This document shows positions 5,057 to 34,476 of a stretch of DNA of 34,543 nt, in pieces. The translations under genes and the position numbers were made by a program. This DNA comes from a virus, in UHGV virus genome UHGV-0068935. One strand, 5' to 3'. Under the pieces are notes generated by a model. The model was not told where the DNA came from and did not search any database. It worked only from the letters and a program-made list of their open reading frames with translations. Position 1 is the first letter of the stretch. The number at the start of each line of letters is the position of its first letter.

Positions 5057-5376
5057 GTGATCATCATGCACACACAAAAAAACCGCTTGCCAGCGTTCGC
5101 CTGGTCGGGTTACAGTTTTCCCGCACCTCATAAAACGGGTGCCGGGATTACCACCCCGCCGACTACAAGAGCGCACAACCGCGCCAGCGGTTTTTTTGTG
5201 CGTACTGTATCGCCACGTCTTTTTCGCGTCAGAATTATGGCGGGGCGTACGGGGCCGACTTCGGTCGGGCCGGGATCTCTTGTAGCCGGTTGTGGTAACC
5301 CTGTACGTCTCGCCACCCTGAGATTACCGCCTCGGGTTGGTGAGTTTTCAGAACTTACTACAAGAGGCCAAACACC

Positions 5377-5672: not shown

Positions 5673-6083
5673 ATGAAGAGCGTTAAGGGACTTTCAGATA
5701 TTCAGGATTTTTTTAACTGGATGTGGGCAGTGGATCCCCGGCTGGCTTCCCGCCTGAACGACTGGCACGACTATTACCGCCGCGCCTGTAAACAGGCCGC
5801 CAGACACGTCACCACATACGGGGATTTCTCCTTCACCGTTGACGACCGTTACCGCGTGGACGTGAAAGGTGATGGTTTTGGTTTATTTCACATCAACGGA
5901 ACCGACAGCACCGCCATCAGTTGGTCGTCGTCAGAGATGACGCTTGTTCTGGAAATGACAAACCACAGCGTGGCCGTGAAAGGTATATACACCGCAGAAG
6001 ACTTTATCGGTGAATACCAGCGCCTTCTCGTGCTGTACCGCGCGGCGTTTCAGGCGGCGACTGCCGGGGAGTGCGACGCATGA
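5673..6083 (+). CDS. Hypothetical protein (136 aa) immediately upstream of and overlapping A
   Basis: ORF overlapping the A start; position corresponds to the replication-accessory region of P2-like phages. Confidence 0.45.
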   Translation: MKSVKGLSDIQDFFNWMWAVDPRLASRLNDWHDYYRRACKQAARHVTTYGDFSFTVDDRYRVDVKGDGFGLFHINGTDSTAISWSSSEMTLVLEMTNHSVAVKGIYTAEDFIGEYQRLLVLYRAAFQAATAGECDA

Positions 6084-8599
6084 GCGACCATAATGCACAA
6101 CTGGCGTACCCGTGGAACGCCCCGCTACCGGTTATCGATCCTGAAACGTTCGGCAGAGCGCAGCCAACCGCATTACGCCAGGCCATTCAGAGCTACATCA
6201 ACGAGGATATTCGCACTGACGCCAGACTGGATGAAGAAACCGTCGCCTTCCTGACAACCACAGACGAAGGGAAGCGAATTAATTCGCATCTTTACCACGA
6301 CGAAGAGCGTCGGATCAGGCTGGAAAAACTGGCGCGGCACAAACACGAGAATCCGCCAACACTGGTATCTGAAGCCATGGCAGAGCTGCGCGCCCTGCCG
6401 CCGTTTCTTGCCGGTCCGCTCATCCGTGACCTGGCGCGCCTGAGCCGCAAACAGGAGAGCGCACGCCGGGAAGGGCTTAAGAATAACAGCGCATATGCGG
6501 CGGATAACTTCGTTCGTCACGGGCTGCGTGCCCGCCTGAAACGTATCGCCCGTGTGAATGAACGCTTTGCCACCCCGGCCTTTAAGGCCACCGCCGCGCG
6601 CGAACGGCTGGATGAACTGCTTATGCTGCCACAGCTGAGCCGTGACGAAATCCAGCGCCTTGCCACCCTGACCGCCACCGCGTTTTCCACCGCACTGGAG
6701 CGCGCATGTGATGAAGTCATCGAAAAGACCGGCAGGGGTGACGATGACCTGCTCACCTGGTTACTGACCTACCAGCCACTGGCACACATGGCGTTAAAAC
6801 TGGGTATCACGCCACCCTGCTGGCCGTCGCTGGAAATCAGGCCCGACCGCCGCACCGACCCCGACCCGGAACGGGTGCCGGGTGCGGTCATGCGCCTTTC
6901 CTGTGCGACATGGTGGAACAGTCAGTTAAGACACCTCCGGGACATCTGGCGTGAAGAACTGTTACGCGCCGCAGGTCTGGTGTCACGTAAGACATCGGTA
7001 TATATCAGCCATGAAGCGTTACTGGACTGGCGCGAAAAACGCCAGCGCACCCGCGATTTTCTGAAGGCCTGGGACATCGAGAACGAAGAGGGAGAACGGT
7101 TCAGCCTTGAGGATATCTACTGGGCAGGTCTCTCTAATCCGCGTAACCGCCGTAACGAGATGATGACCTGCGCCCGGGGAATGGAGCAGGTCGCCGAAGC
7201 ACGCGGCGACGTGGCGTTTTTCGTCACCGTCACAGCCCCTTCCCGTTTTCACAGCGTGAACGATGACGGCAGCCTGAACCCGAAATACTGCGGAGCAACG
7301 GTACGCGATGCCAGTGATTATCTGGTTTACCGCTTTTTCGCCGCCGTCCGCAGGGCCATCGACAAGGCCGGGCTGGGCTGGTACGGCGTGCGCACCGTGG
7401 AGCCCCACCACGACGGTACACCGCACTGGCACATGCTGGTATTCACCAGCCAGGAAAACGAAGCCCGTATCACTGAAATCATGCGCAACGCCGCCATCAG
7501 GGAGGACCGCGCAGAGCTGGGTGATGATATCTCCCCGCGTTTTAAATGCAAAAAAATCGACCCGGCAAAAGGCACACCGACAAGCTATATCGCGACCTAT
7601 ATCGGTAAGAACCTGGACGCCAGCACCTTCATGGGGAATGACCCGAAAACCGGCAAACCTTACGTCGATAAGGAATCAGGCAAAACCATGGCCGAAACCG
7701 TGGAGAACGCCATCGGCTGGGCAGGCCTTCACCGCATCCACCAGTTCCAGTTCTTCGGTATCCCTCCCCGCCAGGTATGGCGCGAACTCCGCCGTCTTGC
7801 CGGGCAAATGGCCCGTAACCCGGCTGCCCCGCAGCGTCTGGACCATGACGACATTGACGCCATACTGGCCGCCGCCGACGTGGGATGTTTTGCCACCTAT
7901 ATCACCCGCCAGGGTGGTGTGCTCATTCCCCGCAACACGTACCTGGTCCGCACCGCATACGAAACTGCCGAAGAGGCCAACGACTACGGCGAATTCCCGC
8001 AACGCATTTACGGCGTCCGCGCCCCGTCACTCGGGGAGCGCTACACCATATGCACCCACCCGGACACCTGGAAACTGGTCAGACGTAAGCCGGAAAACGA
8101 AGACCGCACGGACGAGGGTTTTGACGTTGAGTGCGGCTTTGCCGCACCTTGGACTCGTGGCAATAACTGTCCCCCTGACCAGAATCTGACCATAAACGAC
8201 CCGCCAGAAAGGCAGCCGGACGGACGCAGGGAGCAGCGACTTACCCTGCCGGAAGGTGATTTGGGTGAATGGTTAAGGTCACTGACCCCTACAGAGCGAA
8301 AACAACTCACCAGGCAGCTGAAAAACCCGCCACCTGACACGGAAACCGTGAAAAACGGCGGCATCAGTGCGCCCGCTGGCGGCGTTCGCGTGAGTGTCGC
8401 ACTGACCGCTGAGCCACACATCACCGCACAAATCACCCGTGAGCTTGATGCTCTGGGCGTGCAGCTGCATGAAAGCGCCGTCGTTTCCGTCCGTCACGGT
8501 GCCCGCGTGCGCCTGGCTGACGGACGCACCGCGTACTGGAATGACAGCACCCGCCGCATTGATATCACCCCCGCACCGAATACGGAAGCGCCACAATGA
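6071..8599 (+). CDS. A: Rolling-circle replication initiator endonuclease, P2 gpA-like (HUH superfamily)
   Basis: HUH motif in EPHHDGTPHWHMLVF and catalytic tyrosine motif SYIATYIGKNLD as in phiX174/P2 A proteins; 842 aa. Confidence 0.85.
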   Translation: MRRMSDHNAQLAYPWNAPLPVIDPETFGRAQPTALRQAIQSYINEDIRTDARLDEETVAFLTTTDEGKRINSHLYHDEERRIRLEKLARHKHENPPTLVSEAMAELRALPPFLAGPLIRDLARLSRKQESARREGLKNNSAYAADNFVRHGLRARLKRIARVNERFATPAFKATAARERLDELLMLPQLSRDEIQRLATLTATAFSTALERACDEVIEKTGRGDDDLLTWLLTYQPLAHMALKLGITPPCWPSLEIRPDRRTDPDPERVPGAVMRLSCATWWNSQLRHLRDIWREELLRAAGLVSRKTSVYISHEALLDWREKRQRTRDFLKAWDIENEEGERFSLEDIYWAGLSNPRNRRNEMMTCARGMEQVAEARGDVAFFVTVTAPSRFHSVNDDGSLNPKYCGATVRDASDYLVYRFFAAVRRAIDKAGLGWYGVRTVEPHHDGTPHWHMLVFTSQENEARITEIMRNAAIREDRAELGDDISPRFKCKKIDPAKGTPTSYIATYIGKNLDASTFMGNDPKTGKPYVDKESGKTMAETVENAIGWAGLHRIHQFQFFGIPPRQVWRELRRLAGQMARNPAAPQRLDHDDIDAILAAADVGCFATYITRQGGVLIPRNTYLVRTAYETAEEANDYGEFPQRIYGVRAPSLGERYTICTHPDTWKLVRRKPENEDRTDEGFDVECGFAAPWTRGNNCPPDQNLTINDPPERQPDGRREQRLTLPEGDLGEWLRSLTPTERKQLTRQLKNPPPDTETVKNGGISAPAGGVRVSVALTAEPHITAQITRELDALGVQLHESAVVSVRHGARVRLADGRTAYWNDSTRRIDITPAPNTEAPQ

Positions 8600-9607: not shown

Positions 9608-9871
9608 TCAGGAACGCCGCGACAGTAGTTCAAGCGCATACCGGCGATCTTCCGGGCACATGGCATCAACAAGAAACTTCACCATATTGCGACCGGAGCG
9701 GGCGCCGGGGCTGAGGGTATGGGAAAAGGTCATCGTACAGACGAAGGTATGCCCGCATTCGACATCACTGCATGCACAGTACAGATCCGCAAGTTCAGGG
9801 GTTTTCCAGTCTGTCTTCCGGATGACAGCAGGTGCGCCACAGTCCGGACACCGGGCTTTAAAAATCCGCAT
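9608..9871 (-). CDS. ogr: Ogr/Delta-family zinc-finger late-gene transcriptional activator
   Basis: C-x2-C-x22-C-x4-C spacing identical to P2 Ogr and the YCACSDVECGHTF motif matching P2 YHQCQNVNCSATF; GGGAGG RBS; start at internal Met MRIFKARCPDCG. Confidence 0.8.
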   Translation of the reverse strand: MRIFKARCPDCGAPAVIRKTDWKTPELADLYCACSDVECGHTFVCTMTFSHTLSPGARSGRNMVKFLVDAMCPEDRRYALELLSRRS

Positions 9872-9908: not shown

Positions 9909-10961
9909 TTACCCGACCGGCACCGCTTTTTCTTCCGCCACATGCCCGGCATCCACATCAAAACGAAGATAAAGGTGTTCCGGTATATCGGGATCGCTGT
10001 TCACGGCGTTCATGATTTTACGCTGAAGCGGTATCACCTCATCCTTGCGGTACGTTTCACGCGTCGTTTCCGGGTTAGGGATGGTGGCCCCGTTCGTGGG
10101 GATGATCCCCGCAAGACCGGCAGGAAAGCGGTGTGCCGTAAACACATCCTGGGCGCTGATCCCCTTGATGTTTGAAAATTCATCCTTGGCGCTCACCTCA
10201 CCAATCGGAATAATTTTCACCCCATCCGGCGAACCTTTGGGGATGTTGATGTACAGATTGCGGAAATTTCCCAGCCCCTTAGACTCCGCCACCTTCTCGC
10301 GGATCTCATCCTCCATCTCCGTGGTGATCCCCGGGTCGTTCGTATACAGCAAAAACCCCATATGCGCCCCGTTGTTGTAGTAACGGCGACGAAAAAGGCT
10401 GGCCTCGCTGTTCAGCAGCGCCGAGTGAATGCCACCGATATAATCCGGCAGCCCGTAAATTTGCTGACGCGGATCATACATCCGCAGAAAGATAATATCT
10501 TCCGGCGTATAGACCAGCGCGGGGCCTTCCTGAAGCACCACGAACTCACCGGTTTTGCGGCGCCGGAGATACAGCGACGGAAGCGGCTCAAGTGCCACGA
10601 CGTCGCCGAATACGTTACGCACCTTGAGCAGGGCGAGATCGCCGAACAACAGGTAGTCAAATACCGCCTGTTCCATCTGGTCCGTTGTGAGGCCACCACC
10701 GGTATAGCCCCCCGCCACCATGTTACGGCGGGCATACAACACCCCACCGTGCTGGGCGTTAAGGTTCGGGAGCTGCGCCAGTGCCAGGCGGTTAATCGGC
10801 AACTGCCAGTGGTTGTGTTCGTTGTCATACCAGATGTTATGGTAGTCCGTGCCGGTTGTCAGCACCGGTTCCGGCTGGCCAAAGGTGATTGTGCTGCCAC
10901 GTGCGGGCGTGAATGCTTTTTTCGTCACGCGTGACGTTTTGTTTCTGCGTTTCTTGCTCAT
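9909..10961 (-). CDS. Q: Portal protein, P2 gpQ-like
   Basis: 350 aa (P2 Q is 344), immediately downstream of terminase large subunit with ATGA overlap; start taken at internal Met MSKKRRNK. Confidence 0.8.
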   Translation of the reverse strand: MSKKRRNKTSRVTKKAFTPARGSTITFGQPEPVLTTGTDYHNIWYDNEHNHWQLPINRLALAQLPNLNAQHGGVLYARRNMVAGGYTGGGLTTDQMEQAVFDYLLFGDLALLKVRNVFGDVVALEPLPSLYLRRRKTGEFVVLQEGPALVYTPEDIIFLRMYDPRQQIYGLPDYIGGIHSALLNSEASLFRRRYYNNGAHMGFLLYTNDPGITTEMEDEIREKVAESKGLGNFRNLYINIPKGSPDGVKIIPIGEVSAKDEFSNIKGISAQDVFTAHRFPAGLAGIIPTNGATIPNPETTRETYRKDEVIPLQRKIMNAVNSDPDIPEHLYLRFDVDAGHVAEEKAVPVG

Positions 10962-12763
10962 GCGGCTTTCCCGAAGGCCCATGTGGACGGGCGTTCATAG
11001 TCATAATCTACAGGCTCATTAATCACGGCGTGCGAAATGGCAAAAAACACATCCGCATGCCCCGTAACATCCGACCGTTCCGCCACGAACGTCAGCGCGT
11101 TACCGCTTTTTGTGGTGGTGCGGCGTATGGACATGAACGACGCGGGGATCTCCGTGCGTTCACGGCTGGCCTCATCAATGGCGTCTTTCGCCCACTCGAT
11201 ACGCTTATGGGCCACCACGTCTATCATTTTCATCACCAGGCGGTTTTTGCTCTCCACGCTGTAAAGAATGGCGTTAGCCTCACGTGGCGCAAAGCGACTG
11301 ACGATATCAAACACCCCTTTCCCGATACCGGTGATATCTATGCCGATATAGGTAATGTTAAAACGCTGCATCAGTTCGCGGATCTGATCGGCCTGCCAGG
11401 TGAAGTTAAATCCCTGCCACTGCCAGACGGCGAGCACACGGAACCGCTCGCCCTCATGGACAGGCGGAGCCACAATTACAAACGTGGAATTATCCCCGGA
11501 CCTTGACGGGTCAAAGCCCGCCCACACCTCACGATTGCCGAACGGACGTGCCGCCGTGGGATCGTAGTCACCCCACGTCTCCATCTCCACCTCGCACCTG
11601 ACCAGTTCGGAGAACTTAAATACCGCATCCTTGCTGTCAACAAACTCGCAGCCGTACAGCATCGCGTAAGTGGTCGGATTGTAGCGGTTCCTGATACGTT
11701 CAATATCAACCCGAGCAGACAGGCCACCCGCCACCGCCTCTTCCAGCCGGATAATGTAGCGCCAGATCCCGTCAGGGCATTCACAGCCCACACGCATCGC
11801 GCTTTCTTTCGGAAACTCAACAGCACGACGCGCCGGGTCATCCCCGCGCCAGTCGTCACCATTCCAGACCAGATAAGCCTGGTGGGTTTTGGCGCTGGGT
11901 GTGGAAAAATACGTCGTGCGGTATTTGTCGTGGGTCGCCATTGCCGAGGCCACTTCATGCAGTCGCGTGAATTTTGGGATCCAGAACACCTCATCGCCGT
12001 AAAGGTGGCCGTTAAATCCCTGGGCGGTACTGGCATTGGTGGACAGGAAACGCAGCATTGCACCATTGCTCAGACGGATATGCTTACCCGTGAGCGTGAT
12101 CCCGAACTGCAGGGCGAAGTTAATAATATATTCACGGAAGATTTCCGCCTGTACCCGTGACGCAGAAAAGAAAATCTGGTTATCACCGGTCACCACCGCA
12201 TCTTCGAACGCCTCCCATGCAAAATACCAGGTCATGCCGATCTGGCGGCTCTTGAGGATGAAACGGCGCTCACGGTGCCGGTTCTCGCGGCAGTGCAGCT
12301 GGTAGGCATAAAGATTTTTACGCGCCCATTCATCCAGCATTTCAGCAGTCAGTCCGGAAACGTCGTTTTTCCGGTAGCGCCGCTTTTTCCCTTCTCCCCC
12401 GCCGCAGGTCCCCGCAGCCACGCCGTCCTCATGCCCTGCCGGACGCAGGGCGGCAATTTCCGCCATCCTTTCAGCGTGTTTGTTTTTCTGGGCGATGATC
12501 TTCACGTGCTGCGCGATAAGTTCACGCAGTTCGGCAAGTTCACACTCTGTCTTGCCCTCCCGTCCGGTCAGCACATCAATACGCCGGGCGATCACGTCCT
12601 CAACGGATTCAGCGGGCAGCAGGGTAGCCCACTGCCCCACATCACACCAGTGGTAAACCGTGCGCGGCGGAATACCGAGTTCCGCCGCAATATCGCGGGG
12701 GTGCCACCGCTTCAGGTAAAGCGATCGCGCCGCCTCTTTGATTTCATCAGAATATTTAGCCAT
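10958..12763 (-). CDS. P: Terminase large (ATPase) subunit, P2 gpP-like
   Basis: About 600 aa, divergent from the O-N-M-L operon as in P2; start ambiguous (12763 or 12784). Confidence 0.8.
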   Translation of the reverse strand: MAKYSDEIKEAARSLYLKRWHPRDIAAELGIPPRTVYHWCDVGQWATLLPAESVEDVIARRIDVLTGREGKTECELAELRELIAQHVKIIAQKNKHAERMAEIAALRPAGHEDGVAAGTCGGGEGKKRRYRKNDVSGLTAEMLDEWARKNLYAYQLHCRENRHRERRFILKSRQIGMTWYFAWEAFEDAVVTGDNQIFFSASRVQAEIFREYIINFALQFGITLTGKHIRLSNGAMLRFLSTNASTAQGFNGHLYGDEVFWIPKFTRLHEVASAMATHDKYRTTYFSTPSAKTHQAYLVWNGDDWRGDDPARRAVEFPKESAMRVGCECPDGIWRYIIRLEEAVAGGLSARVDIERIRNRYNPTTYAMLYGCEFVDSKDAVFKFSELVRCEVEMETWGDYDPTAARPFGNREVWAGFDPSRSGDNSTFVIVAPPVHEGERFRVLAVWQWQGFNFTWQADQIRELMQRFNITYIGIDITGIGKGVFDIVSRFAPREANAILYSVESKNRLVMKMIDVVAHKRIEWAKDAIDEASRERTEIPASFMSIRRTTTKSGNALTFVAERSDVTGHADVFFAISHAVINEPVDYDYERPSTWAFGKAA

Positions 12764-12811
12764 GCGCCCATTATGGCGGCGCATCCGGCCCGCATTCAGG
12801 CAGAAAATTTC

Positions 12812-15027: not shown

Positions 15028-15726
15028 ATGACACCCTGCCAGCGGCACCGGGCGAAAATCCGCACACAGGAGGCACTCGAACGCCGGGAGGCGCTGACGG
15101 CCTCCCCGGTCAGCTTCCACCTGTTACGCGCGGAGCTTGATCGCGATGTGGCACGGCTGCGCAGTCTTCCGGTCCGCGAAGAGCGGCTGGCGTTCAAGCG
15201 CGACATTCTCCTGCCGCGCTGGCTGCCCGTCGCGGAGCGCTATATCACTGACGGAAAGCGCCACGCCTGCCCGGTACTGGTGTACTGCATCATCTGGCTG
15301 TTCGACACGGGCGACCTGAGTCGCGCCCTTGACTGGGCAGACATTGCCATCAGTGAAGGCCAGGCCACACCGGACAACTTCCGCAGCACCCTGCCCGCCT
15401 TCGTGGCAGACACGGTGCTGCAGTGGGCCACCGACAACAGCGAGGCCGGACACAGCATAGAACCGTATTTTTCGCGCACCTTCAGGAACGTCACCACCTC
15501 GTGGCGGCTGCATGAGGAAATCCGCGCGAAGTGGTTCAGATTTGCCGGGCTGTATCTTCTGCGCGACGAGGCGGGCAAACCGAGAGCCACCGCGATTAAT
15601 GATACTGCCGTACTGGAAAAGGCAGACGCATACCTGGCACAGGCGGCAGCACTGAGCCGTACCGCTGGCGTAAAAAGTATCAGGGCGCGCATCAGGGCAC
15701 GCATCAGCGCCCTTAATGCAGCGTAA
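15028..15726 (+). CDS. M: Terminase small (endonuclease) subunit, P2 gpM-like
   Basis: 232 aa (P2 M is 247), position after N. Confidence 0.7.
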   Translation: MTPCQRHRAKIRTQEALERREALTASPVSFHLLRAELDRDVARLRSLPVREERLAFKRDILLPRWLPVAERYITDGKRHACPVLVYCIIWLFDTGDLSRALDWADIAISEGQATPDNFRSTLPAFVADTVLQWATDNSEAGHSIEPYFSRTFRNVTTSWRLHEEIRAKWFRFAGLYLLRDEAGKPRATAINDTAVLEKADAYLAQAAALSRTAGVKSIRARIRARISALNAA

Positions 15727-19108: not shown

Positions 19109-19414
19109 ATGCCGGACGGTCAGACTTCACTCCTGGCAAAACTGATTATCATCGGTGCTGCCATCGGGCTGGGGCGTCTCATGGTGAGCCGCGATCGCAT
19201 CACAGCCCGTCTGCTTATCGGGCGAATGATTATGGGCTCTGCCGTGGCACCGGTTGCCGCCATTCCGCTGTTTAAATTTCCGGACATGCCGGAGCTGGTT
19301 GTGGTCGGTCTGGCGTGCGCGCTGGGCATTATGGGCAGCGCCTTTATTGAAGAATGCTTTTGCCGTCTGGCAGACCGCTACCTGAAGCAGAAGGAACGCA
19401 GAAATGACCCATAA
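19109..19414 (+). CDS. Putative holin / small membrane protein (101 aa, multiple TM segments)
   Basis: Hydrophobic segments LLAKLIIIGAAIGLG, IMGSAVAPVAAIPLF and LVVVGLACALGIMGSAFI; located upstream of the endolysin. Confidence 0.4.
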   Translation: MPDGQTSLLAKLIIIGAAIGLGRLMVSRDRITARLLIGRMIMGSAVAPVAAIPLFKFPDMPELVVVGLACALGIMGSAFIEECFCRLADRYLKQKERRNDP

Positions 19415-20156
19415 GCCTTACATTTCGCCTTTCCTGAGCCTGTATCACGCGCAGGCGCATGACGTTCTGCGAATGCTGCCGGAAAACAGTGTGGACGCGC
19501 TCATCACAGACCCGCCATACAGTTCAGGTGCCACACACAAGGCGGGGCGGACATGCCAGGGCAGCCACGCCAAATACATCAACGATGAAGATCTTCACCG
19601 CTTTGAAGGCTTCGAAGGCGAGAACATGGACGCCCGTTCATGGGAATACTGGACGCATCTGTGGATGACACAGGCATGGCGCACGGTACGACCCGGTGGT
19701 TACGCCCTGGTCTTCACCGACTGGCGGCAGTTGCCCGCGCTGACGGACGCATTCCAGGCCGCCGGTTTTACCTGGCGGGGGATCGTGGCATGGAACAAGG
19801 GACGGGCCTCAAGAACACCGCATACCGGTTATTTTCGTCACCAGTGCGAATATGTGGTCTGGGGCAGTAAAGGCGCGCTGGGCAAATCCCCTTCCGGGCC
19901 GTTCGACGGCTGCATCACGCACCACACACGCCCACAGGAGAAACAGCACCCGACAGGTAAACCGGAATCGTTGATGAATGAGCTTGTGCGCGTGTGTGAA
20001 CCCGGAGGGCTGATCCTCGATCCGTTTATGGGGTCCGGCACCACGGGCGTGGCCGCCCTTCGCCGGGGCTGCCGTTTTACGGGTATTGAACTGAACGCCC
20101 ACTATTTCAGCGTGGCACAGGCGCGCCTTACGGGGACGGAACAGAGGAGTGACTGA
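19404..20156 (+). CDS. Orphan DNA methyltransferase (N6-adenine or N4-cytosine, beta class)
   Basis: DPPY catalytic motif near the N-terminus (ITDPPYSS) and FMGSGTTGVAA AdoMet-binding motif near the C-terminus. Confidence 0.8.
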   Translation: MTHKPYISPFLSLYHAQAHDVLRMLPENSVDALITDPPYSSGATHKAGRTCQGSHAKYINDEDLHRFEGFEGENMDARSWEYWTHLWMTQAWRTVRPGGYALVFTDWRQLPALTDAFQAAGFTWRGIVAWNKGRASRTPHTGYFRHQCEYVVWGSKGALGKSPSGPFDGCITHHTRPQEKQHPTGKPESLMNELVRVCEPGGLILDPFMGSGTTGVAALRRGCRFTGIELNAHYFSVAQARLTGTEQRSD

Positions 20157-29610: not shown

Positions 29611-31284
29611 ATGAACCCCACTAAACGTCTGTTACTGGGTAACGACACCATTCAGCTGGTCAGTTGTTCCGTCATGCTTGAGCTGAACGCGTGCGGACGC
29701 GGATTTATCACGGCCAGAACAGAGCAGAACTACACCGGGCGCCCCGTTCGTCTCGATATCGGATACGGAAACGACCTGGTGCGCTGGTTTACCGGATACG
29801 TTGAACGCAGCCAGCCCGCTGAAAACGGCTCGGTGCGACTTCTGATTCGTGAAATGGCGGGGATCCTTGATCACCCCTTCCCCTGTTCATTTCAGCACCC
29901 GACAATGCGCACGGTCACACAGTGGCTGAGTGAGACCAGCGGGCTGGAAATCATCCTGCCGGACAACGCGGCTTACACTGACAGACCCGTTCCGCATTTC
30001 ACACACAGCGGCACGGGCTACGAACTGCTGGCCAGTCTGGGGCGTATTTTCTCCGTACCGGATTACATCTGGCATCCGTTACCGGACGGCGGCATTATGG
30101 CCGCTGCTGCCGCGCAGGGGATGTTTTCCGGTCGCCCCGTCACCATCCCGCACGAGTTCAGCCAGGCATCAACGGGCGGGCACAGTATGACCCTCCCGAT
30201 GATTCAGACGCTGCGACCGGGTGTGGAGGTGAACGGTCAGCGCCTGACGATGGTCATGCTGGAAGATGACAACATGACCATCACGTGGACACCGCGCAAT
30301 AAAGCCACCGGCGCTCCCCTCCAGAAGTCCCCTTTCCGTCGCCAGGCTGAAAAGGCCTTCCCTGAGCTGGCATCAGGGCTTCACCTGCCCAAACTGGCAC
30401 GTGTTGAGGCACCGACCGAAGCCGTCAGCGCGGGCAATATTGCCGACCCGTTCAGACCCCGCTACGCGGTGAATCTCCAGCTGCTTGACGAGAACGGCAA
30501 CCCGGCAGCAGATACGCCCGTCTATAACGCCGTTCCCCTCCCCGTTCCCATGGCGGGCAGTGAGTCCGGCATGTTCCAGTTCCCGCCACCCGGAACCCTG
30601 GTGGAAGTGGGATTTGTGGAAGGCCGGGCGGATAAGCCCTTCATCCGCCAGATAATGGCAGAGGGCCACAATCTGCCCGACGTGAAGCCGGGCGAGCAGT
30701 TGCAGCAACAGCGCGACGGCGTATCGCAGCGCGTGACGGTCGCCGGAGACTGGGAGCGCCAGACAGACCAGCGGATACAGGAGACATCACGCGAGCGCGT
30801 GGTGAGCGCAGACGAGGAAAAGCGGAGCCTGACCAGCCGGGAGACCACCATACAGGCAACCGACACAACCACCGTCCTGGGCGTATCCACGCTTCAGGCT
30901 GGCGCGGTCACCCATATCACTGAAGAGAACTACAGCATCAGCACGGGCGGGCACATGATGGTGGTTGCCGGTACCTGTGAGCGCGACGTGGAAGGCGACA
31001 CCCAGGACACCGTGGGCGGCAGCCTTACCGAAAAGATTAAGGGCGTCCGTCACAGTATTGCGCAGGCGCAGAAGCTGGTTGGCGATACGGTGAAGCTGGG
31101 AAACGAGGGCATTAATGTACTGACCATGCTGACGGACCTTGCCGATGTGGTGGAAGAGCTGGCAGATATTACAGCATCACATACCCACCCAAAAACGGGC
31201 ACGTCTCCGCAGGCCGCACAGTTCAGCCAGGTCGCTCAGGAGTGCCGCCAGCTAAAAAATAAATATTCGCCAATAATCGAATAG
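29611..31284 (+). CDS. Putative baseplate hub / late control D-like tail protein (557 aa)
   Basis: Last gene of late operon, same position as P2 D; assignment by position only. Confidence 0.35.
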   Translation: MNPTKRLLLGNDTIQLVSCSVMLELNACGRGFITARTEQNYTGRPVRLDIGYGNDLVRWFTGYVERSQPAENGSVRLLIREMAGILDHPFPCSFQHPTMRTVTQWLSETSGLEIILPDNAAYTDRPVPHFTHSGTGYELLASLGRIFSVPDYIWHPLPDGGIMAAAAAQGMFSGRPVTIPHEFSQASTGGHSMTLPMIQTLRPGVEVNGQRLTMVMLEDDNMTITWTPRNKATGAPLQKSPFRRQAEKAFPELASGLHLPKLARVEAPTEAVSAGNIADPFRPRYAVNLQLLDENGNPAADTPVYNAVPLPVPMAGSESGMFQFPPPGTLVEVGFVEGRADKPFIRQIMAEGHNLPDVKPGEQLQQQRDGVSQRVTVAGDWERQTDQRIQETSRERVVSADEEKRSLTSRETTIQATDTTTVLGVSTLQAGAVTHITEENYSISTGGHMMVVAGTCERDVEGDTQDTVGGSLTEKIKGVRHSIAQAQKLVGDTVKLGNEGINVLTMLTDLADVVEELADITASHTHPKTGTSPQAAQFSQVAQECRQLKNKYSPIIE

Positions 31285-31298
31285 TTATTCATTTTAAC

Positions 31299-31326
31299 AG
31301 GCCGCGCAATGTGGCCTTTTTTATTC
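31299..31326 (+). terminator. Putative intrinsic terminator after the last tail gene
   Basis: Hairpin AGGCCGCGCAATGTGGCCT followed by TTTTTTATT. Confidence 0.4.
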
Positions 31327-31399
31327 CCCCGATAATAAAAAATATTCATCACAGGACATCACCCGCCACGAAAAAACCGCCCGCAGCAGAAAAAAAGAT

Positions 31400-31995
31400 G
31401 GACGAAACGCCCCACGTAATCCCCACGTAAAACGTCGCGTAACGCCACGTAACGAAGAGATAACCCCGCCAGCCCGATTCGATCCCCTGACATCGGAAAA
31501 CGATTTCTGCGCCCCAAAATCGCCGCAAATGGCCGGAAATTTTCGGGGGCGACGTAACGCGTAAAGTGACGTAATCGGCGCTACCCCGCACACGCCTCCG
31601 GTATTTGTGTACGATAAATTTTGCAAATCGAAAGGGGTGCAAAACACCCCGCCAGGGCGCGCCATTACTGAGGTTTTCCCTTCTGAATGGTTTTGCACTT
31701 TGTGCAAGGTTTTGCAAAAGTGTGCAAAAACTCCGGCTTTCTGAGGATCCCGAAAAATTTTAATGCACTGAATAACAAGAGATTTTTAAAATTACGTCAC
31801 GATCGAAGATCTGAAAAAGGATCCGGCGACGAAAACGAAAAAATCAGGAAAGCCAGAACTGGCGCGGCCTGGCGGGGAGTGGCAGCAAAAATCACTTTTG
31901 CACACTTTTGCACAACTGCTCCGAAAAAGGATGGCGAAGGGGAAGGAAAAACAGCCACGTCATCCGTTGCACGTAACGGACGTAAAAGGTAAATT
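31400..31995. repeat. Repeat-rich non-coding region: phased CGTAA repeats, TTTGCAC/GTGCAAA repeats, GATC cluster
   Basis: At least 9 CGTAA copies in phased groups (10-12 bp spacing at 31414..31453), tandem CTTTTGCACA x2 at 31895..31914, palindrome GGGGTGCAAAACACCCC at 31634..31650, five GATC sites in 31481..31824; no convincing ORF. Confidence 0.45.
31967..31995 (+). promoter_or_regulatory. Putative promoter of hok copy 1 (TTGCAC-N17-TAAATT)
   Basis: Sigma70-like hexamers just upstream of the start of the duplicated hok unit. Confidence 0.3.
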
Positions 31996-32147
31996 ACGCG
32001 CGGGTGCCTTTCGGCTGACGGCTGGAAGGATTACCTGAAGGCCGGATGTGGAAAGGCCCCGAGTCAAACATTTGTTTAACCCGAGGCCCTGACCATCTAC
32101 CTCGCAAGTGGAAGGTTAGCGCCTCCCTGTAAAAGGAGTCAAGCGCT

Positions 32148-32288
32148 ATGCCGCAAAAAACGATCATAGTGAGCATTTTATGCATAACTATTTTGATGAT
32201 TGTCTGGATGATACACAAGTCACCGTGTGAGTTCAGGCTTAACATCATGTGGTCACAATTTGCGGCGTTCTTGCAGTGTAAACAGTAA
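32148..32288 (+). CDS. hok: Hok/Gef-family type I toxin (46 aa, HokA-like)
   Basis: MPQKTIIVSILCITILMIVWMIHKSPCEFRLNIMWSQFAAFLQCKQ matches my memory of HokA (MPQKYRLLSLIVICFTLLFFTWMIRDSLCELHIKQESYELAAFLACKLKE): shared MPQK, TM helix, SxCE and AAFLxCK; AAAAGGAG RBS. Confidence 0.8.
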   Translation: MPQKTIIVSILCITILMIVWMIHKSPCEFRLNIMWSQFAAFLQCKQ

Positions 32289-32378
32289 GAAACCGCAGCG
32301 GGGGTGAAAGCCCCCGCTATCCGGTTGCCGGGTTCGGTCGATATGGCACCCTTTCTCCGTTGGATTACAGACGTATTT

Positions 32379-32401
32379 GCCCGCAATATGCGGGCTTTTT
32401 T
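32379..32401 (+). terminator. Intrinsic terminator of hok copy 1
   Basis: GCCCGCAATATGCGGGC hairpin followed by TTTTTT. Confidence 0.6.
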
Positions 32402-32403
32402 GT

Positions 32404-32607
32404 TCAGTTGTATTTATTGTGGTCGTTACTGGCAGTGGTATTAACTGATTTTGCATGAATAGCACAAATTTTTTCCACGATAACACCACACGCTTCAAGA
32501 TCTTCCGGGCGTGAAACCTTTATTTTTGTAACCGTCTCAGGATTATCAGCCGTTCCACTTTGCACAACCTCAATTTCAATTTTTTTTCTTGAAAGAATCA
32601 TTTTCAT
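32404..32607 (-). CDS. Possible small ORF (67 aa) between the hok copies
   Basis: AT-rich ORF from the track, weak RBS; no recognised motif. Confidence 0.2.
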   Translation of the reverse strand: MKMILSRKKIEIEVVQSGTADNPETVTKIKVSRPEDLEACGVIVEKICAIHAKSVNTTASNDHNKYN

Positions 32608-32686
32608 CGCCCCGACACAGGACAGAGTAAGCCTGTGCGAAAGAATATCACCAGTGCGATAGCGTTGTCTGCTTCAACGCCAGGCA

Positions 32687-32715
32687 TTGCGCACACAAAG
32701 GGAAATCAGTACATT
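32687..32715 (+). promoter_or_regulatory. Putative promoter of hok copy 2 (TTGCGC-N17-TACATT)
   Basis: Same architecture and position as the copy 1 promoter. Confidence 0.3.
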
Positions 32716-32870
32716 ACACGCGGGTGCCTTTCGGCTGATGGCTGGAAGGATTACCTGAAGGCCGGATGTGGAAAGGCCCCGAGTCAACTTAAATGTTAAC
32801 CCGAGGCCCTAACACTTCCTACCGTGACAAGTGGAAGGTTAGCGCCTCCCTGTAAAAGGAGTCAAGCGCT

Positions 32871-33011
32871 ATGCCGCAAAAAACGATCATCGTGAGCATT
32901 TTATGCTTAACCATGTTGTTGACCGTCTGGATGATACACCGTTCTCCGTGTGAGTTCAGACTTAACATCATGTGGTCAGAATTTGCGGCGTTCTTGCAGT
33001 GTAAACCGTAA
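32871..33011 (+). CDS. hok: Hok/Gef-family type I toxin (46 aa), second copy
   Basis: MPQKTIIVSILCLTMLLTVWMIHRSPCEFRLNIMWSEFAAFLQCKP; same RBS and frame as copy 1. Confidence 0.8.
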   Translation: MPQKTIIVSILCLTMLLTVWMIHRSPCEFRLNIMWSEFAAFLQCKP

Positions 33012-33101
33012 GAAACCGCAGCGGGGGTGAAAGCCCCCGCTATCCGGTTGCCGGGTTCGGTCGATATGGCACCCTTTCTCCGTTGAATTACATAGACATT
33101 T

Positions 33102-33134
33102 GCCCGCGATATGCGGGCTATATTTTTATTTTTT
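33102..33134 (+). terminator. Intrinsic terminator of hok copy 2, abutting the stop of the convergent 398-aa gene
   Basis: GCCCGCGATATGCGGGC hairpin followed by T-rich tract. Confidence 0.55.
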
Positions 33135-34322
33135 GAATAGGTTAATAAATTCAGGTTTTTTCTTATCTCCTGCTTCCCTTCGTTTAACCCAACAACACCC
33201 TGACTGAAGTAAACAGACAAATTCATCCTGCTTCAGCTCTAAGGTGTCTTTAAGTTTTAATTGTTTTTTCGCAGCATCAGGAACAAAAACATCAACAATA
33301 ATCTTTCCGGGGTCATACAGTTGAGTTTCAATCAGCACAGGTAATTTATGGACAGGTCTGGGTTCCATACGAGAAAAAGAAAACTCACCATCCATCACAC
33401 CATCAAAAGTACTTACAGAATCGTAACCAGAAAAGCACTCATATTTCACCTGAAGAACAACAGCATCATCAAGCTTTAAAAAATCGCAATAAGAATCATA
33501 CGCCAGGCGATCACTATAAAAAACATCACCGCGATTAAACTGAAAGGAATCCCCTTGCGTCCAAATTTCATAATTAAAAAACTCTGTTTTTACTGGGGTA
33601 AGTTTTATATCCAAAGAATCCTTGTAACACTCTTTTACAGCAAAGCGCCAACCAGCTGCGTAACCATCAACAAATACCGCAATCAACGCATTACTACGGC
33701 GAAACTCCCTTACAGTACGGATAGAAAGCGAGAACTCATCTATCATACTCTTGTAAGTGTTAACATCCTTCTCAAGCGATTTACTGATATCATTCTCAAC
33801 CACGCAGTCTTGCTCAAGAGGAATTTCACCAGTATCAATAAAATTGATAAATTGTTCTTCTGTCAGAATAATTACGCCATAATCGCTGGCTTTCTGAACT
33901 TTCCGCCACCCTTTGTTCTTTCCTACACAAAGGAAAAACAAACTTTTTCCAACATCAGACTTAACATCAATACCATTTTCTTTTGCAAGAGCACTTAAGC
34001 GAGATTTATCAGACTGGTCAAATCCGGTAAAACAAATTGAAATTGAATTCTTTTTGGGTGAAGATTTTCGGGGGGGGGGGGCAATATACTGACTGAAATC
34101 AGTTTCAGACGCAACCTTATTCAACTCCTGGTCGCTAGAAAACATCTGAATAACACGGTCTTTCAAAAAGGTACGAAATGCGCGACGAGTTAAAGAGAAT
34201 CCTTGTAAATAATCCCCTTTTTCAGCCACCTTTATCACGCATTGAGCCGACAACTCCCCTCTACCGTTAACATACAGAAAAAACGCCTCTTTATTTTCGT
34301 TTATCATTTCCCTATCAAACAT
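33126..34322 (-). CDS. Cargo protein with WYL-like N-terminal motif, Pro-rich linker, BRCT-like domain and uncharacterised C-terminal domain (398 aa)
   Basis: Residues about 93-165 (ICFTGFDQSDKSRLSALAKENGIDVKSDVGKSLFFLCVGKNKGWRKVQKASDYGVIILTEEQFINFI) follow the BRCT pattern of the NAD-ligase C-terminus; residues about 37-58 (DYLQGFSLTRRAFRTFLKDRVI) resemble the WYL signature; markedly AT-rich; GGGGG SD-like element upstream. Confidence 0.6.
   Translation of the reverse strand: MFDREMINENKEAFFLYVNGRGELSAQCVIKVAEKGDYLQGFSLTRRAFRTFLKDRVIQMFSSDQELNKVASETDFSQYIAPPPRKSSPKKNSISICFTGFDQSDKSRLSALAKENGIDVKSDVGKSLFFLCVGKNKGWRKVQKASDYGVIILTEEQFINFIDTGEIPLEQDCVVENDISKSLEKDVNTYKSMIDEFSLSIRTVREFRRSNALIAVFVDGYAAGWRFAVKECYKDSLDIKLTPVKTEFFNYEIWTQGDSFQFNRGDVFYSDRLAYDSYCDFLKLDDAVVLQVKYECFSGYDSVSTFDGVMDGEFSFSRMEPRPVHKLPVLIETQLYDPGKIIVDVFVPDAAKKQLKLKDTLELKQDEFVCLLQSGCCWVKRREAGDKKKPEFINLFKK
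34070..34081. repeat. Homopolymeric G tract (about 12 nt; C12 on coding strand) inside the 398-aa gene
   Basis: Run of G in the sequence; the ORF track reads it in frame as Ala-Pro-Pro-Pro-Arg. My hand count of the printed text gave 11 G, but the track translation requires 12, so exact length is uncertain by 1. Confidence 0.75.
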
Positions 34323-34400: not shown

Positions 34401-34414
34401 AAAATGTGGACAAC
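34401..34414. repeat. Putative Int arm-type site AAAATGTGGACAAC, right copy
   Basis: Near-identical to 476..489; lies 46 bp inside the proposed attR core. Confidence 0.3.
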
Positions 34415-34459: not shown

Positions 34460-34476
34460 CGCCACCCGAAGGTGGC
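34460..34476. repeat. attR: Putative attR core (CGCCACCCGAAGGTGGC), right copy of 17-bp direct repeat
   Basis: Identical to 362..378; here forms a terminator-like hairpin (CGCCACC-CGAA-GGTGGCG) followed by a T-rich tract. Confidence 0.45.

Follow-up and report, generated by a model that had tools for sequence, protein, structure and literature searches.

HP1-like phages carry their cohesive-end site (cos) next to attP and not next to the portal gene (PMC2771037), and in the Vibrio relative PV94 the ends have been mapped experimentally as 16-nt 5' overhangs (PMC3986222). Here we describe a repeat-rich non-coding stretch, positions 31400–31995 of the 34,543-nt virus genome UHGV-0068935 (the whole of which is called the window below), and propose, with a probability of roughly 0.86, that it serves an HP1-like Peduoviridae prophage as its cos packaging site. 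As in HP1/HP2, phiO18P, PV94, ESSI-2 and SI7/SW5, this candidate cos is situated between an orf35-type tail gene and attP/int, and it contains a homologous G+C-rich cohesive-end sequence of 15–16 nt, CACGGAA/ACGTAA repeats that abut the cut, with an inverted copy at approximately +210 to +220 (offsets are relative to cosN, the predicted nicking site), and, on the attP side, T-rich TTGCAA or TTCAGT elements and a GGATC cluster. It differs from the sites of these phages in having two substitutions in cosN, uniform ACGTAA repeats that are present in more copies, and a cargo island between cos and attP, made up of two hok/sok loci and the gene for a BRCT-domain protein; its termini, moreover, are predicted.

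Other described packaging signals share parts of this organization. In lambda, whose cos is composed of cosQ, cosN and cosB, the small terminase subunit (TerS) binds the R3, R2 and R1 sites of cosB and the integration host factor (IHF) bends the DNA, and N15 has an accessory inverted site, rR2, approximately 200 bp away (PMC4669245). The window resembles both phages in that the nicking site is flanked by short repeats in both orientations, and N15 additionally in the distance of its accessory inverted copy. In contrast to lambda, the TerS of the window is of the gpM type (PF05944) and not a Nu1 winged helix-turn-helix protein, the predicted overhang is 16 nt rather than 12 nt, the repeats occupy both sides of cosN, no IHF consensus is found around it, and protein binding is putative. 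P2 has terminase and head genes homologous to those of the window. It has only cos in common with its satellite P4, and a defence hotspot adjoins that site (PMC9122126); likewise, satellites share the cos segment alone with helpers of the HP1 type, and variable cargo (hok, BRCT-domain and AbiH genes) lies beside cos. However, the cos of P2 is located next to the portal gene and yields a 19-nt end of another sequence, and a P2-type cos was rejected for the window because a search with GGCGNGGCGGGGAAAGCA, allowing up to three mismatches, gave no match. In P1, a GATC cluster flanks the terminase cleavage site of pac, and Dam controls cleavage via GATC hexamers (PMC10028697). The window also has a GATC cluster beside its predicted cut, but its sites are mostly (A)GGATC instead of TGATCA/G hexamers, the site is a cos and not a headful signal, and any dependence on methylation is putative.

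Position, termini and conservation of the candidate cos

The window comprises a complete prophage of the HP1-like Peduoviridae. As annotated in a sister prophage of Escherichia coli, it has int, C, cox, A, ogr, portal, terminase, scaffold, capsid and gpM genes of the P2 type, combined with a tail of the HP1 type. The last tail gene (29611–31284, with its stop at 31284) is a homolog of HP1 orf35, and its product is 38 per cent identical to that of HP1, 40 per cent to that of phiO18P, 58 per cent to that of ESSI-2 and 67 per cent to that of Salmonella phage SI7. Downstream of this gene follow, in order, a terminator, the non-coding stretch, two hok/sok loci, the gene for a 398-aa BRCT-domain protein, and attR (approximately 34460–34476), with int at 468–1499; in the relatives, too, a terminator is found at the equivalent place after the last tail gene. 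The stretch therefore lies between the orf35 homolog and attP/int, as cos does in the annotations of HP1, where cosL is placed at base 1 of the record, 192 nt past the orf35 stop, and of phiO18P, where cosR is 200 nt past the orf35 homolog. The terminase has a gpM-type small subunit (15028–15726, PF05944) and a gpP-type large subunit (TerL; 10958–12784, minus strand), and TerL and the portal protein are 76–78 per cent identical to their SI7 counterparts.

The predicted cosN, CTACCCCGCACACGCC, is identical to the family consensus CTACACCGCACCCGCC at 14 of 16 positions (the substitutions are A5C and C12A) and to the annotated 16-nt cosL/cosR of phiO18P (CTCATCCGCTCCCGCC) at 11 of 16. The record of Cronobacter phage ESSI-2 has the 15-mer CTACACCGCACCCGC at both of its ends, which the window matches bar two substitutions, and the ends of the virion-derived records of SW5 and ESSI2_ev129 fall within the family 15-mer. 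The first 15 nt of the consensus are invariant in 24 genome loci from approximately 15 genera despite diverging flanks, and the 15-mer extended by four further bases is present in more than 120 IMG/VR contigs. The loci compared here extend at most 10 kb to either side of a match. The site is single-copy: nowhere else in the whole window is there a match to the cosN consensus with two or fewer mismatches. Its variant sequence is unchanged in 12 E. coli genomes and in five IMG/VR contigs of the lineage (a search of IMG/VR with the 16-mer of the window gave nine matches, four of which were unrelated chance matches).

Two public records are at fault in this region. ESSI2_ev129 (NC_049394.1) carries the Nextera adapter CTGTCTCTTATACACATCT at both ends, abutting the phage sequence within the 15-mer, and in SI7 (NC_049460.1; 5885–5900 of locus L033) cosN is short of 9 nt (ctacaccgc) found in SW5 and in every prophage relative.

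Conservation extends beyond cosN. A block rich in repeats occupies the same position in each of 26 related loci from other Enterobacterales, and within the lineage of the window itself only 3 of the 278 positions in 31548–31825 are variable, versus 29 of 448 elsewhere (Fisher P-value = 0.0003). Two classes of loci can be distinguished by their motifs: A-type loci have TTTTGCA(A/C) 7–10 times together with GACGGAA(A), whereas B-type loci have AAACTGAAA/TTTCAGTTT instead. In histograms computed from 127 non-redundant cos regions, the motifs show sharp maxima at constant distances from cosN. For the repeats directly to the left of cosN, 104 matches fall in the interval −20 to −1 and a further 89 in the interval −40 to −21. 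GATC sites peak at +140 to +179 and at +220 to +239, and their mean number in the 360 bp from −100 to +260 is 3.3, compared to 0.82 expected (an approximately 4-fold enrichment).

Approximately a dozen cos loci in IMG/VR have no orf35-like gene to the left of cos, and the two of these that we examined, L079 and L137, are P4-like satellites, with an integrase, an alpha-type primase and either an Ogr/Delta or an Ash protein. L079 encodes a P4-type integrase, a Toprim/DUF927 primase and an Ash protein, with cos at 5310–5328; L137 encodes an integrase, a D5-type primase and an Ogr/Delta protein, with cos on the minus strand near 9830–9845. Seven loci without orf35 were compared to eight phage loci, and their identity was 0.57–0.93 over −25 to +150 and approximately 0.25–0.3 outside of it. 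Because sharing is limited to this segment, the core packaging signal would correspond to approximately 31556–31731. The satellites carry a cosN of the canonical HP1/ESSI-2 type and approximately 150 bp of its right flank, a pattern that, by analogy with P2 and P4, would be expected of a hijacked packaging signal. No satellite with the cosN variant of the window itself was found, and second copies of this variant within a genome belong to sister prophages. L079 also encodes a major capsid protein of the P2 family (PF05125), and in L137 a SLATT and reverse-transcriptase cargo adjoins cos.

We identify the stretch as cos because of the family of the prophage and the position of the stretch in it, the match to the termini of relatives, the conserved repeats, the sharing with satellites, the conservation within the lineage, and the PF05944 TerS. 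Several observations weigh against this identification. The cohesive ends are known from relatives, and cosN in this prophage is predicted from sequence; it departs at 2 of 16 positions from an otherwise invariant consensus, and decay of the site is conceivable in principle, although all 12 genomes carry the variant as a fixed sequence and have otherwise intact packaging genes. The distal left array (31413–31452), the part of the stretch from +150 to +415 and the repeat copies in the hok promoter all fall outside the satellite-shared core, and a role of these outer elements in packaging is a guess. The TTGCAA and TTCAGT motif classes switch jointly at several positions, but TerS similarity does not track them beyond general phylogeny: the TerS of phiO18P, an A-type phage, is equally near to those of A- and B-type enteric phages, both over its full length and in its first 62 residues, and does not group with the A-type. 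Across the family, the AC..AA copies to the left and to the right of cosN co-vary no more than loosely, and we have toned down the claim of a specificity switch for this reason. Finally, the IHF consensus WATCARNNNNTTR was not found in 31330–32000, and it occurs near +180 in only 18 of the 127 family sequences.

Organization of the repeats around the predicted cosN

The stretch had been singled out in a sequence-only reading that listed its short repeats, and most of that list was confirmed. At least nine CGTAA copies had been claimed, and on the plus strand there are four at 31415, 31426, 31438 and 31448 (spacings of 11, 12 and 10), three at 31553, 31560 and 31570 (spacings of 7 and 10) and two at 31972 and 31981, which makes nine, with a single inverted copy at 31792. 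The GATC sites are likewise where they had been reported (31481, 31746, 31801, 31808 and 31820, four of them inside 78 bp). TTTGCAC/GTGCAAA, said to recur six times, is present in five exact copies (TTTGCAC at 31692, 31897 and 31907; GTGCAAA at 31637 and 31722), and a sixth is obtained only if one near-copy is accepted. Two copies of CTTTTGCACA do occur in tandem (31895–31914), whereas the supposed palindrome GGGGTGCAAAACACCCC (31634–31650) is a hairpin with a 6-bp stem (GGGGTG-CAAAA-CACCCC) and is imperfect as a palindrome.

The enrichment of these motifs was evaluated in 2000 dinucleotide-preserving shuffles of 31400–31995. No shuffle reached the observed counts of CGTAA (10 observed, 1.36 expected), ACGTAA (8 and 0.32), TTTGCAC (5 and 0.14) or TTTGCA, TGCAAA included (9 and 0.71), and a fraction of 0.0095 reached the count of GATC (5 and 1.40). 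Because the motifs were picked after the sequence had been inspected, the shuffle fractions are not clean P-values; the excess is nevertheless large. The stretch holds 8 of the 19 ACGTAA and 5 of the 8 TTTGCAC copies of the whole window.

The absence of a credible open reading frame (ORF) was also corroborated. Neither the 101-aa ORF at 31687–31992 (plus strand) nor the 128-aa ORF at 31321–31707 (minus strand) has a Pfam match, PGAP annotates differing 'hypothetical proteins' there among near-identical genomes, and the lengths of indels between relatives (13 nt, for instance) are not divisible by three. Megablast and blastn searches of the DNA against a phage collection gave no match, and the sole match in a plasmid collection was one 1.2-Mb record. 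The stretch is a real, strongly non-random, non-coding array of short cis-acting repeats that are probably bound by protein. To this extent the sequence-only reading stands; of the three functions that it named, which are weighed in the next section, none is the main one.

Features of the candidate cos region and its borders (coordinates are those of the window)
Feature	Position	Strand	Basis and remarks
Rho-independent terminator	31299–31325	+	8-bp stem and T-run (terminator scan); ends the late tail operon
Distal array, four CACGTAA/CGCGTAA	31413–31452	+	Period of about 11 bp (10–12); expansion in this E. coli lineage
Proximal repeats GACGTAA, CGCGTAA, GACGTAA	31551–31574	+	Abut cosN on the left; alignment A1, columns 271–295
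cosN, predicted 16-nt cohesive-end sequence CTACCCCGCACACGCC	31581–31596	+	Homology to the termini of relatives
First right-hand elements: AAATTTTGCAAAT, hairpin with GTGCAAA copy, CCGCCAG	31616–31655	+	Alignment A1, columns 337–375
39-bp dyad TTTTGCAC-N-GTGCAA / TTTTGCAAAA-N-GTGCAAAA	31691–31729	+	+110 to +148; inverted repeats I5, I17 and I18
GATC cluster (31746, 31801, 31808, 31820) and inverted GACGTAA (TTACGTC, 31792–31798)	31746–31823		Alignment A1, columns 501–540
Distal right elements: CTGGCGCGGCCTGGCGGGG, tandem CTTTTGCACA x2	31854–31914		Alignment A1, columns 580–648
Probable hok1 promoter TTGCAC-17 nt-TAAATT, with CACGTAA (31970–31976) and GACGTAA (31979–31985)	31967–31995	+	Predicted, by reading of the sequence

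On the left of cosN, the proximal repeats are homologous to the two GACGGAA copies of enteric relatives and to CCACGGAA(A) of HP1 and phiO18P, in which CCACGGAA(A) and C(T/C)ACGTAA lie directly ahead of the cut. The copy nearest to cosN falls within the satellite-shared segment. At the position of the distal array, relatives have only partial GTAA(A/C) matches, and this distal flank is more variable than the core within the lineage; that the array serves as an accessory terminase site or a termination (cosQ-like) site is a guess. In the lineage of the window, the conserved repeat copies are all ACGTAA rather than ACGGAA, and their number has risen to 10; these uniform, amplified repeats and the two-substitution cosN are lineage-specific features.

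The right flank was compared in alignment A1 (the window and seven A-type loci from six genera), in a B-type alignment, and in a mixed alignment of 16 sequences (A4). First to the right of cosN, relatives have CTGC...TTTGGATC, the GATC of which is lost in the window. Their AAATTTTGCAAAAG corresponds to 31616–31628 and their TTTTGTGCAAAC to the hairpin of the window, after which comes CCGCCAG; B-type loci have TTTTTCAGTTTT, TTTTCTACAAA and CGCCAG at the same offsets. These first elements are common to the satellites and form a cosB-like part of the core signal. Dyad TTTTGCA(A/C) elements extend from +35 to +150, and elements of the TTTCAGT type are found at identical positions in B-type loci. 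For the 39-bp dyad, relatives have the form TTTGCAC...GCGCAA TTTTGCA...TTTTGCAAAA. Its arms are retained in all 16 sequences of A4, with both sides altered in seven (TTTTGCA/TGCAAAA versus AACTGAA/TTCAGTT; RNAalifold). Satellite-to-phage identity is 0.67–0.78 in this dyad and 0.27 just beyond it, which places the right edge of the core signal here.

Further to the right, the GATC cluster and the inverted repeat copy are conserved in phages and absent from the satellite-shared segment. Seven relatives have AAAAGGATC-N13-TTTCCGTCACGATC, that is, inverted GACGGAAA, the counterpart of which in the window is TTACGTCACGATCG at 31792–31805. An inverted CACGGAAA copy is located at approximately +215 to +222 in HP1 and phiO18P, and at approximately +210 in the window: phiO18P has GGATCTGAAAGGATC, which parallels GATCTGAAAAAGGATC in the GATC cluster of the window, and inverted TTTCCGTG at approximately +215, and HP1 has the inverted copy TTTTCCGTG at approximately +222. 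Closer to the cut, phiO18P has TTTTTTGCAAAAG at +22 and HP1 has TTTTTTCAGTT near +45. In the window, the inverted copy forms a perfect 10-nt inverted repeat with the proximal repeats (I11; 31566–31575 and 31791–31800). Of the distal right elements, CTGGCGCGGCCTGGCGGGG is the inverted partner of 31644–31670 (I1; 27 nt, 85 per cent) and the tandem CTTTTGCACA that of 31709–31729 (I2; 21 nt, 95 per cent). The order in relatives is GAAGCCTTGCG...GGCTGGCGG, followed by TTTTGCAAAAnnTTGCGCA in place of the tandem, followed by AAAAGGATC. These elements are kept in phage relatives outside the satellite-shared segment and are at most accessory in packaging.

We propose that the gpM-type and gpP-type terminase subunits would recognize circular or concatemeric phage DNA at cos and introduce staggered nicks on both strands within the 16-bp cosN, which would generate the cohesive ends of the virion DNA. 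The core signal would comprise one or more AC(G/A)(G/T/A)AA repeats immediately next to cosN towards the tail genes and, in the opposite direction, a TTTTGCA element, the GC hairpin with CCGCCAG, and the 39-bp TTTTGCAC/GTGCAAAA dyad. By analogy with the R sites of lambda cosB, the repeats and the TTGCA dyads would bind or position TerS, possibly with a DNA-bending host factor: the proximal repeats are proposed as terminase-binding or positioning sites, and the 39-bp dyad as a site for a multimeric protein, with TerS as the leading candidate. An accessory part similar to that of N15 rR2 would fall to the GATC cluster, the distal tandem repeats and the inverted ACGTAA at approximately +210. The assignment of proteins to repeats is made by analogy, and the packaging polarity and any effect of methylation are likewise putative.

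Cox and C were also considered as binders of the repeats. Both are unlikely, as A-type phages share the motifs though their Cox and C proteins are only 33–46 per cent identical over partial lengths, and cargo insertions part the repeats from attP.

Alternative explanations of the array

The sequence-only reading had suggested an origin or partition-like element. Such an element, a replication origin or centromere-like site built of iterons and a GATC cluster as in P1 oriR and plasmid origins, would also have phased short direct repeats, but the likeness is superficial. The phage encodes a rolling-circle endonuclease of the P2 A type (6071–8599), and both P2 and PV94 have their origin inside the rep/A gene. 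The 30-mer GCTTTGCCGCACCTTGGACTCGTGGCAATA (8136–8165, plus strand), within the A-type replication gene of the window, matches the annotated nick region of the P2 origin at 23 of 30 positions, is found at the same relative position in the A gene, and is probably the rolling-circle origin. The annotated sister prophage has no genes for ParA/ParB or for a Rep protein that would bind iterons, the element is integrated, and the region coincides with the virion termini of relatives. We therefore disfavour an origin or partition site, which is the least probable of the explanations considered. A gene for a structured non-coding RNA in the interval from cos to the cargo, to which the long-range inverted repeats I1, I2 and I11 and the A4 pairs changed on both sides might point, is very improbable. 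There is no Rfam match in 31330–32000 (at the gathering threshold or with E ≤ 1). The consensus fold of the right flank reaches only −11 kcal/mol across 356 alignment columns, with −0.93 as its covariation term and no more than two short predicted helices; the long inverted repeats are not nested, and a helix formed by I11 would span the cut. Given this weak fold, with short dyads only, and a negative promoter scan, we dropped the non-coding RNA.

That the array regulates the downstream hok/sok toxin locus, as the sequence-only reading had also proposed, holds at most for its end. The last two ACGTAA copies (31970–31985) lie within the −35 element and the spacer of the apparent hok1 promoter, but most repeats are 100–580 bp from it, and a second hok copy, whose promoter has the same geometry (TTGCGC-17 nt-TACATT), lacks such repeats. 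Furthermore, the architecture is shared by relatives with other cargo or none: in a related E. coli prophage, integrated at yegQ, the tail gene is likewise followed by a non-coding block resembling that of the window, yet the cargo is AbiH instead of hok, and SI7 is without cargo. HP1 and phiO18P also have this arrangement. (A sigma-70 consensus promoter scan of 31200–32200 gave no match, the hok1 promoter included.) For the array as a whole, this explanation is improbable.

A Dam-dependent epigenetic switch of the pap, agn43 or gtr type, unconnected with packaging, would accord with the four clustered GATC sites and with their family-wide enrichment at recurring offsets. However, the family has no neighbouring regulated gene in common, as the cargo differs or is absent, the promoter scan was negative, and the GATC offsets are fixed relative to cosN. 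The phage does encode a methyltransferase (19404–20156, plus strand), as the sequence-only reading had remarked, but a link of this enzyme to the GATC cluster is unsupported: it belongs to Pfam family PF01555 (N6_N4_Mtase) and not to the Dam family, and no homolog was found in SI7, ESSI-2 or HP1. Its gene is situated between the holin and endolysin genes, a slot taken by the 'met' gene in phiO18P. We regard a switch of this kind as quite improbable. If the stretch is a cos site, its GATC sites could instead render cleavage Dam-sensitive, as at P1 pac.

A bolder version of the cos identification combines a lineage-private packaging specificity (the cosN substitutions, the conversion and amplification of ACGTAA, and the two copies in the hok1 promoter) with family-wide Dam gating of cos. 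This combination is doubtful; if true, it would couple the occupancy by packaging proteins to the methylation state and possibly to toxin expression, and would insulate the phage from P4-like satellites that exploit the canonical cos.

Cargo beside cos and implications

The interval between cos and attP is a cargo hotspot (31996–34322 in the window; 6431–7396 in locus L004), paralleling the cos-adjacent defence hotspot of P2 and P4. In the window, it contains a tandemly duplicated hok/sok unit (32002–32400 and 32715–33120), whose Hok proteins (32148–32288 and 32871–33011) match the Pfam family HOK_GEF. An Rfam match to sok at 32002–32159 scores 50.7 bits, under the gathering score of 59, and hok/sok starts at approximately 32002. 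A 67-aa ORF between the two hok copies (32404–32607, minus strand) has no Pfam match, and the low-GC gene for the 398-aa BRCT-domain protein is at 33126–34322 on the minus strand. Sister prophages located at serS carry two or three copies of hok and lack the BRCT-domain gene, in one E. coli strain the same prophage, with the same cargo, adjoins ytfP, and phage SI7 has no cargo in the interval. A 17-bp direct repeat, CGCCACCCGAAGGTGGC, itself a terminator-like hairpin, forms the putative att core at approximately 362–378 and 34460–34476; integrase arm-type motifs (TGTGGACA-like, (A)T(C/G)TGGACA) adjoin both repeats, at 479–487 and 34405–34412. In the early region, Rfam matches above the gathering score correspond to isrK (5123–5197, 65 bits) and to the C4 antisense RNA (5233–5320, 80 bits), both on the plus strand.

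As a cos site, the stretch is an expected, ordinary phage element, with the conserved GATC offsets and the satellite-shared core as points of moderate interest. That an apparently mysterious repeat block is a standard phage element averts its annotation as an origin or a regulatory switch, and puts the cargo genes (hok, BRCT-domain and AbiH) in a hotspot next to cos that resembles the one of P2 and P4. The comparison provides a base-level map of cos architecture for phages of the HP1, ESSI-2 and Irrigatiovirus types, in which the sharing of −25 to +150 alone with satellites acts as a natural 'deletion analysis', and both the two interchangeable motif classes and the GATC sites, with their constant offsets, offer determinants of packaging specificity that can be tested.

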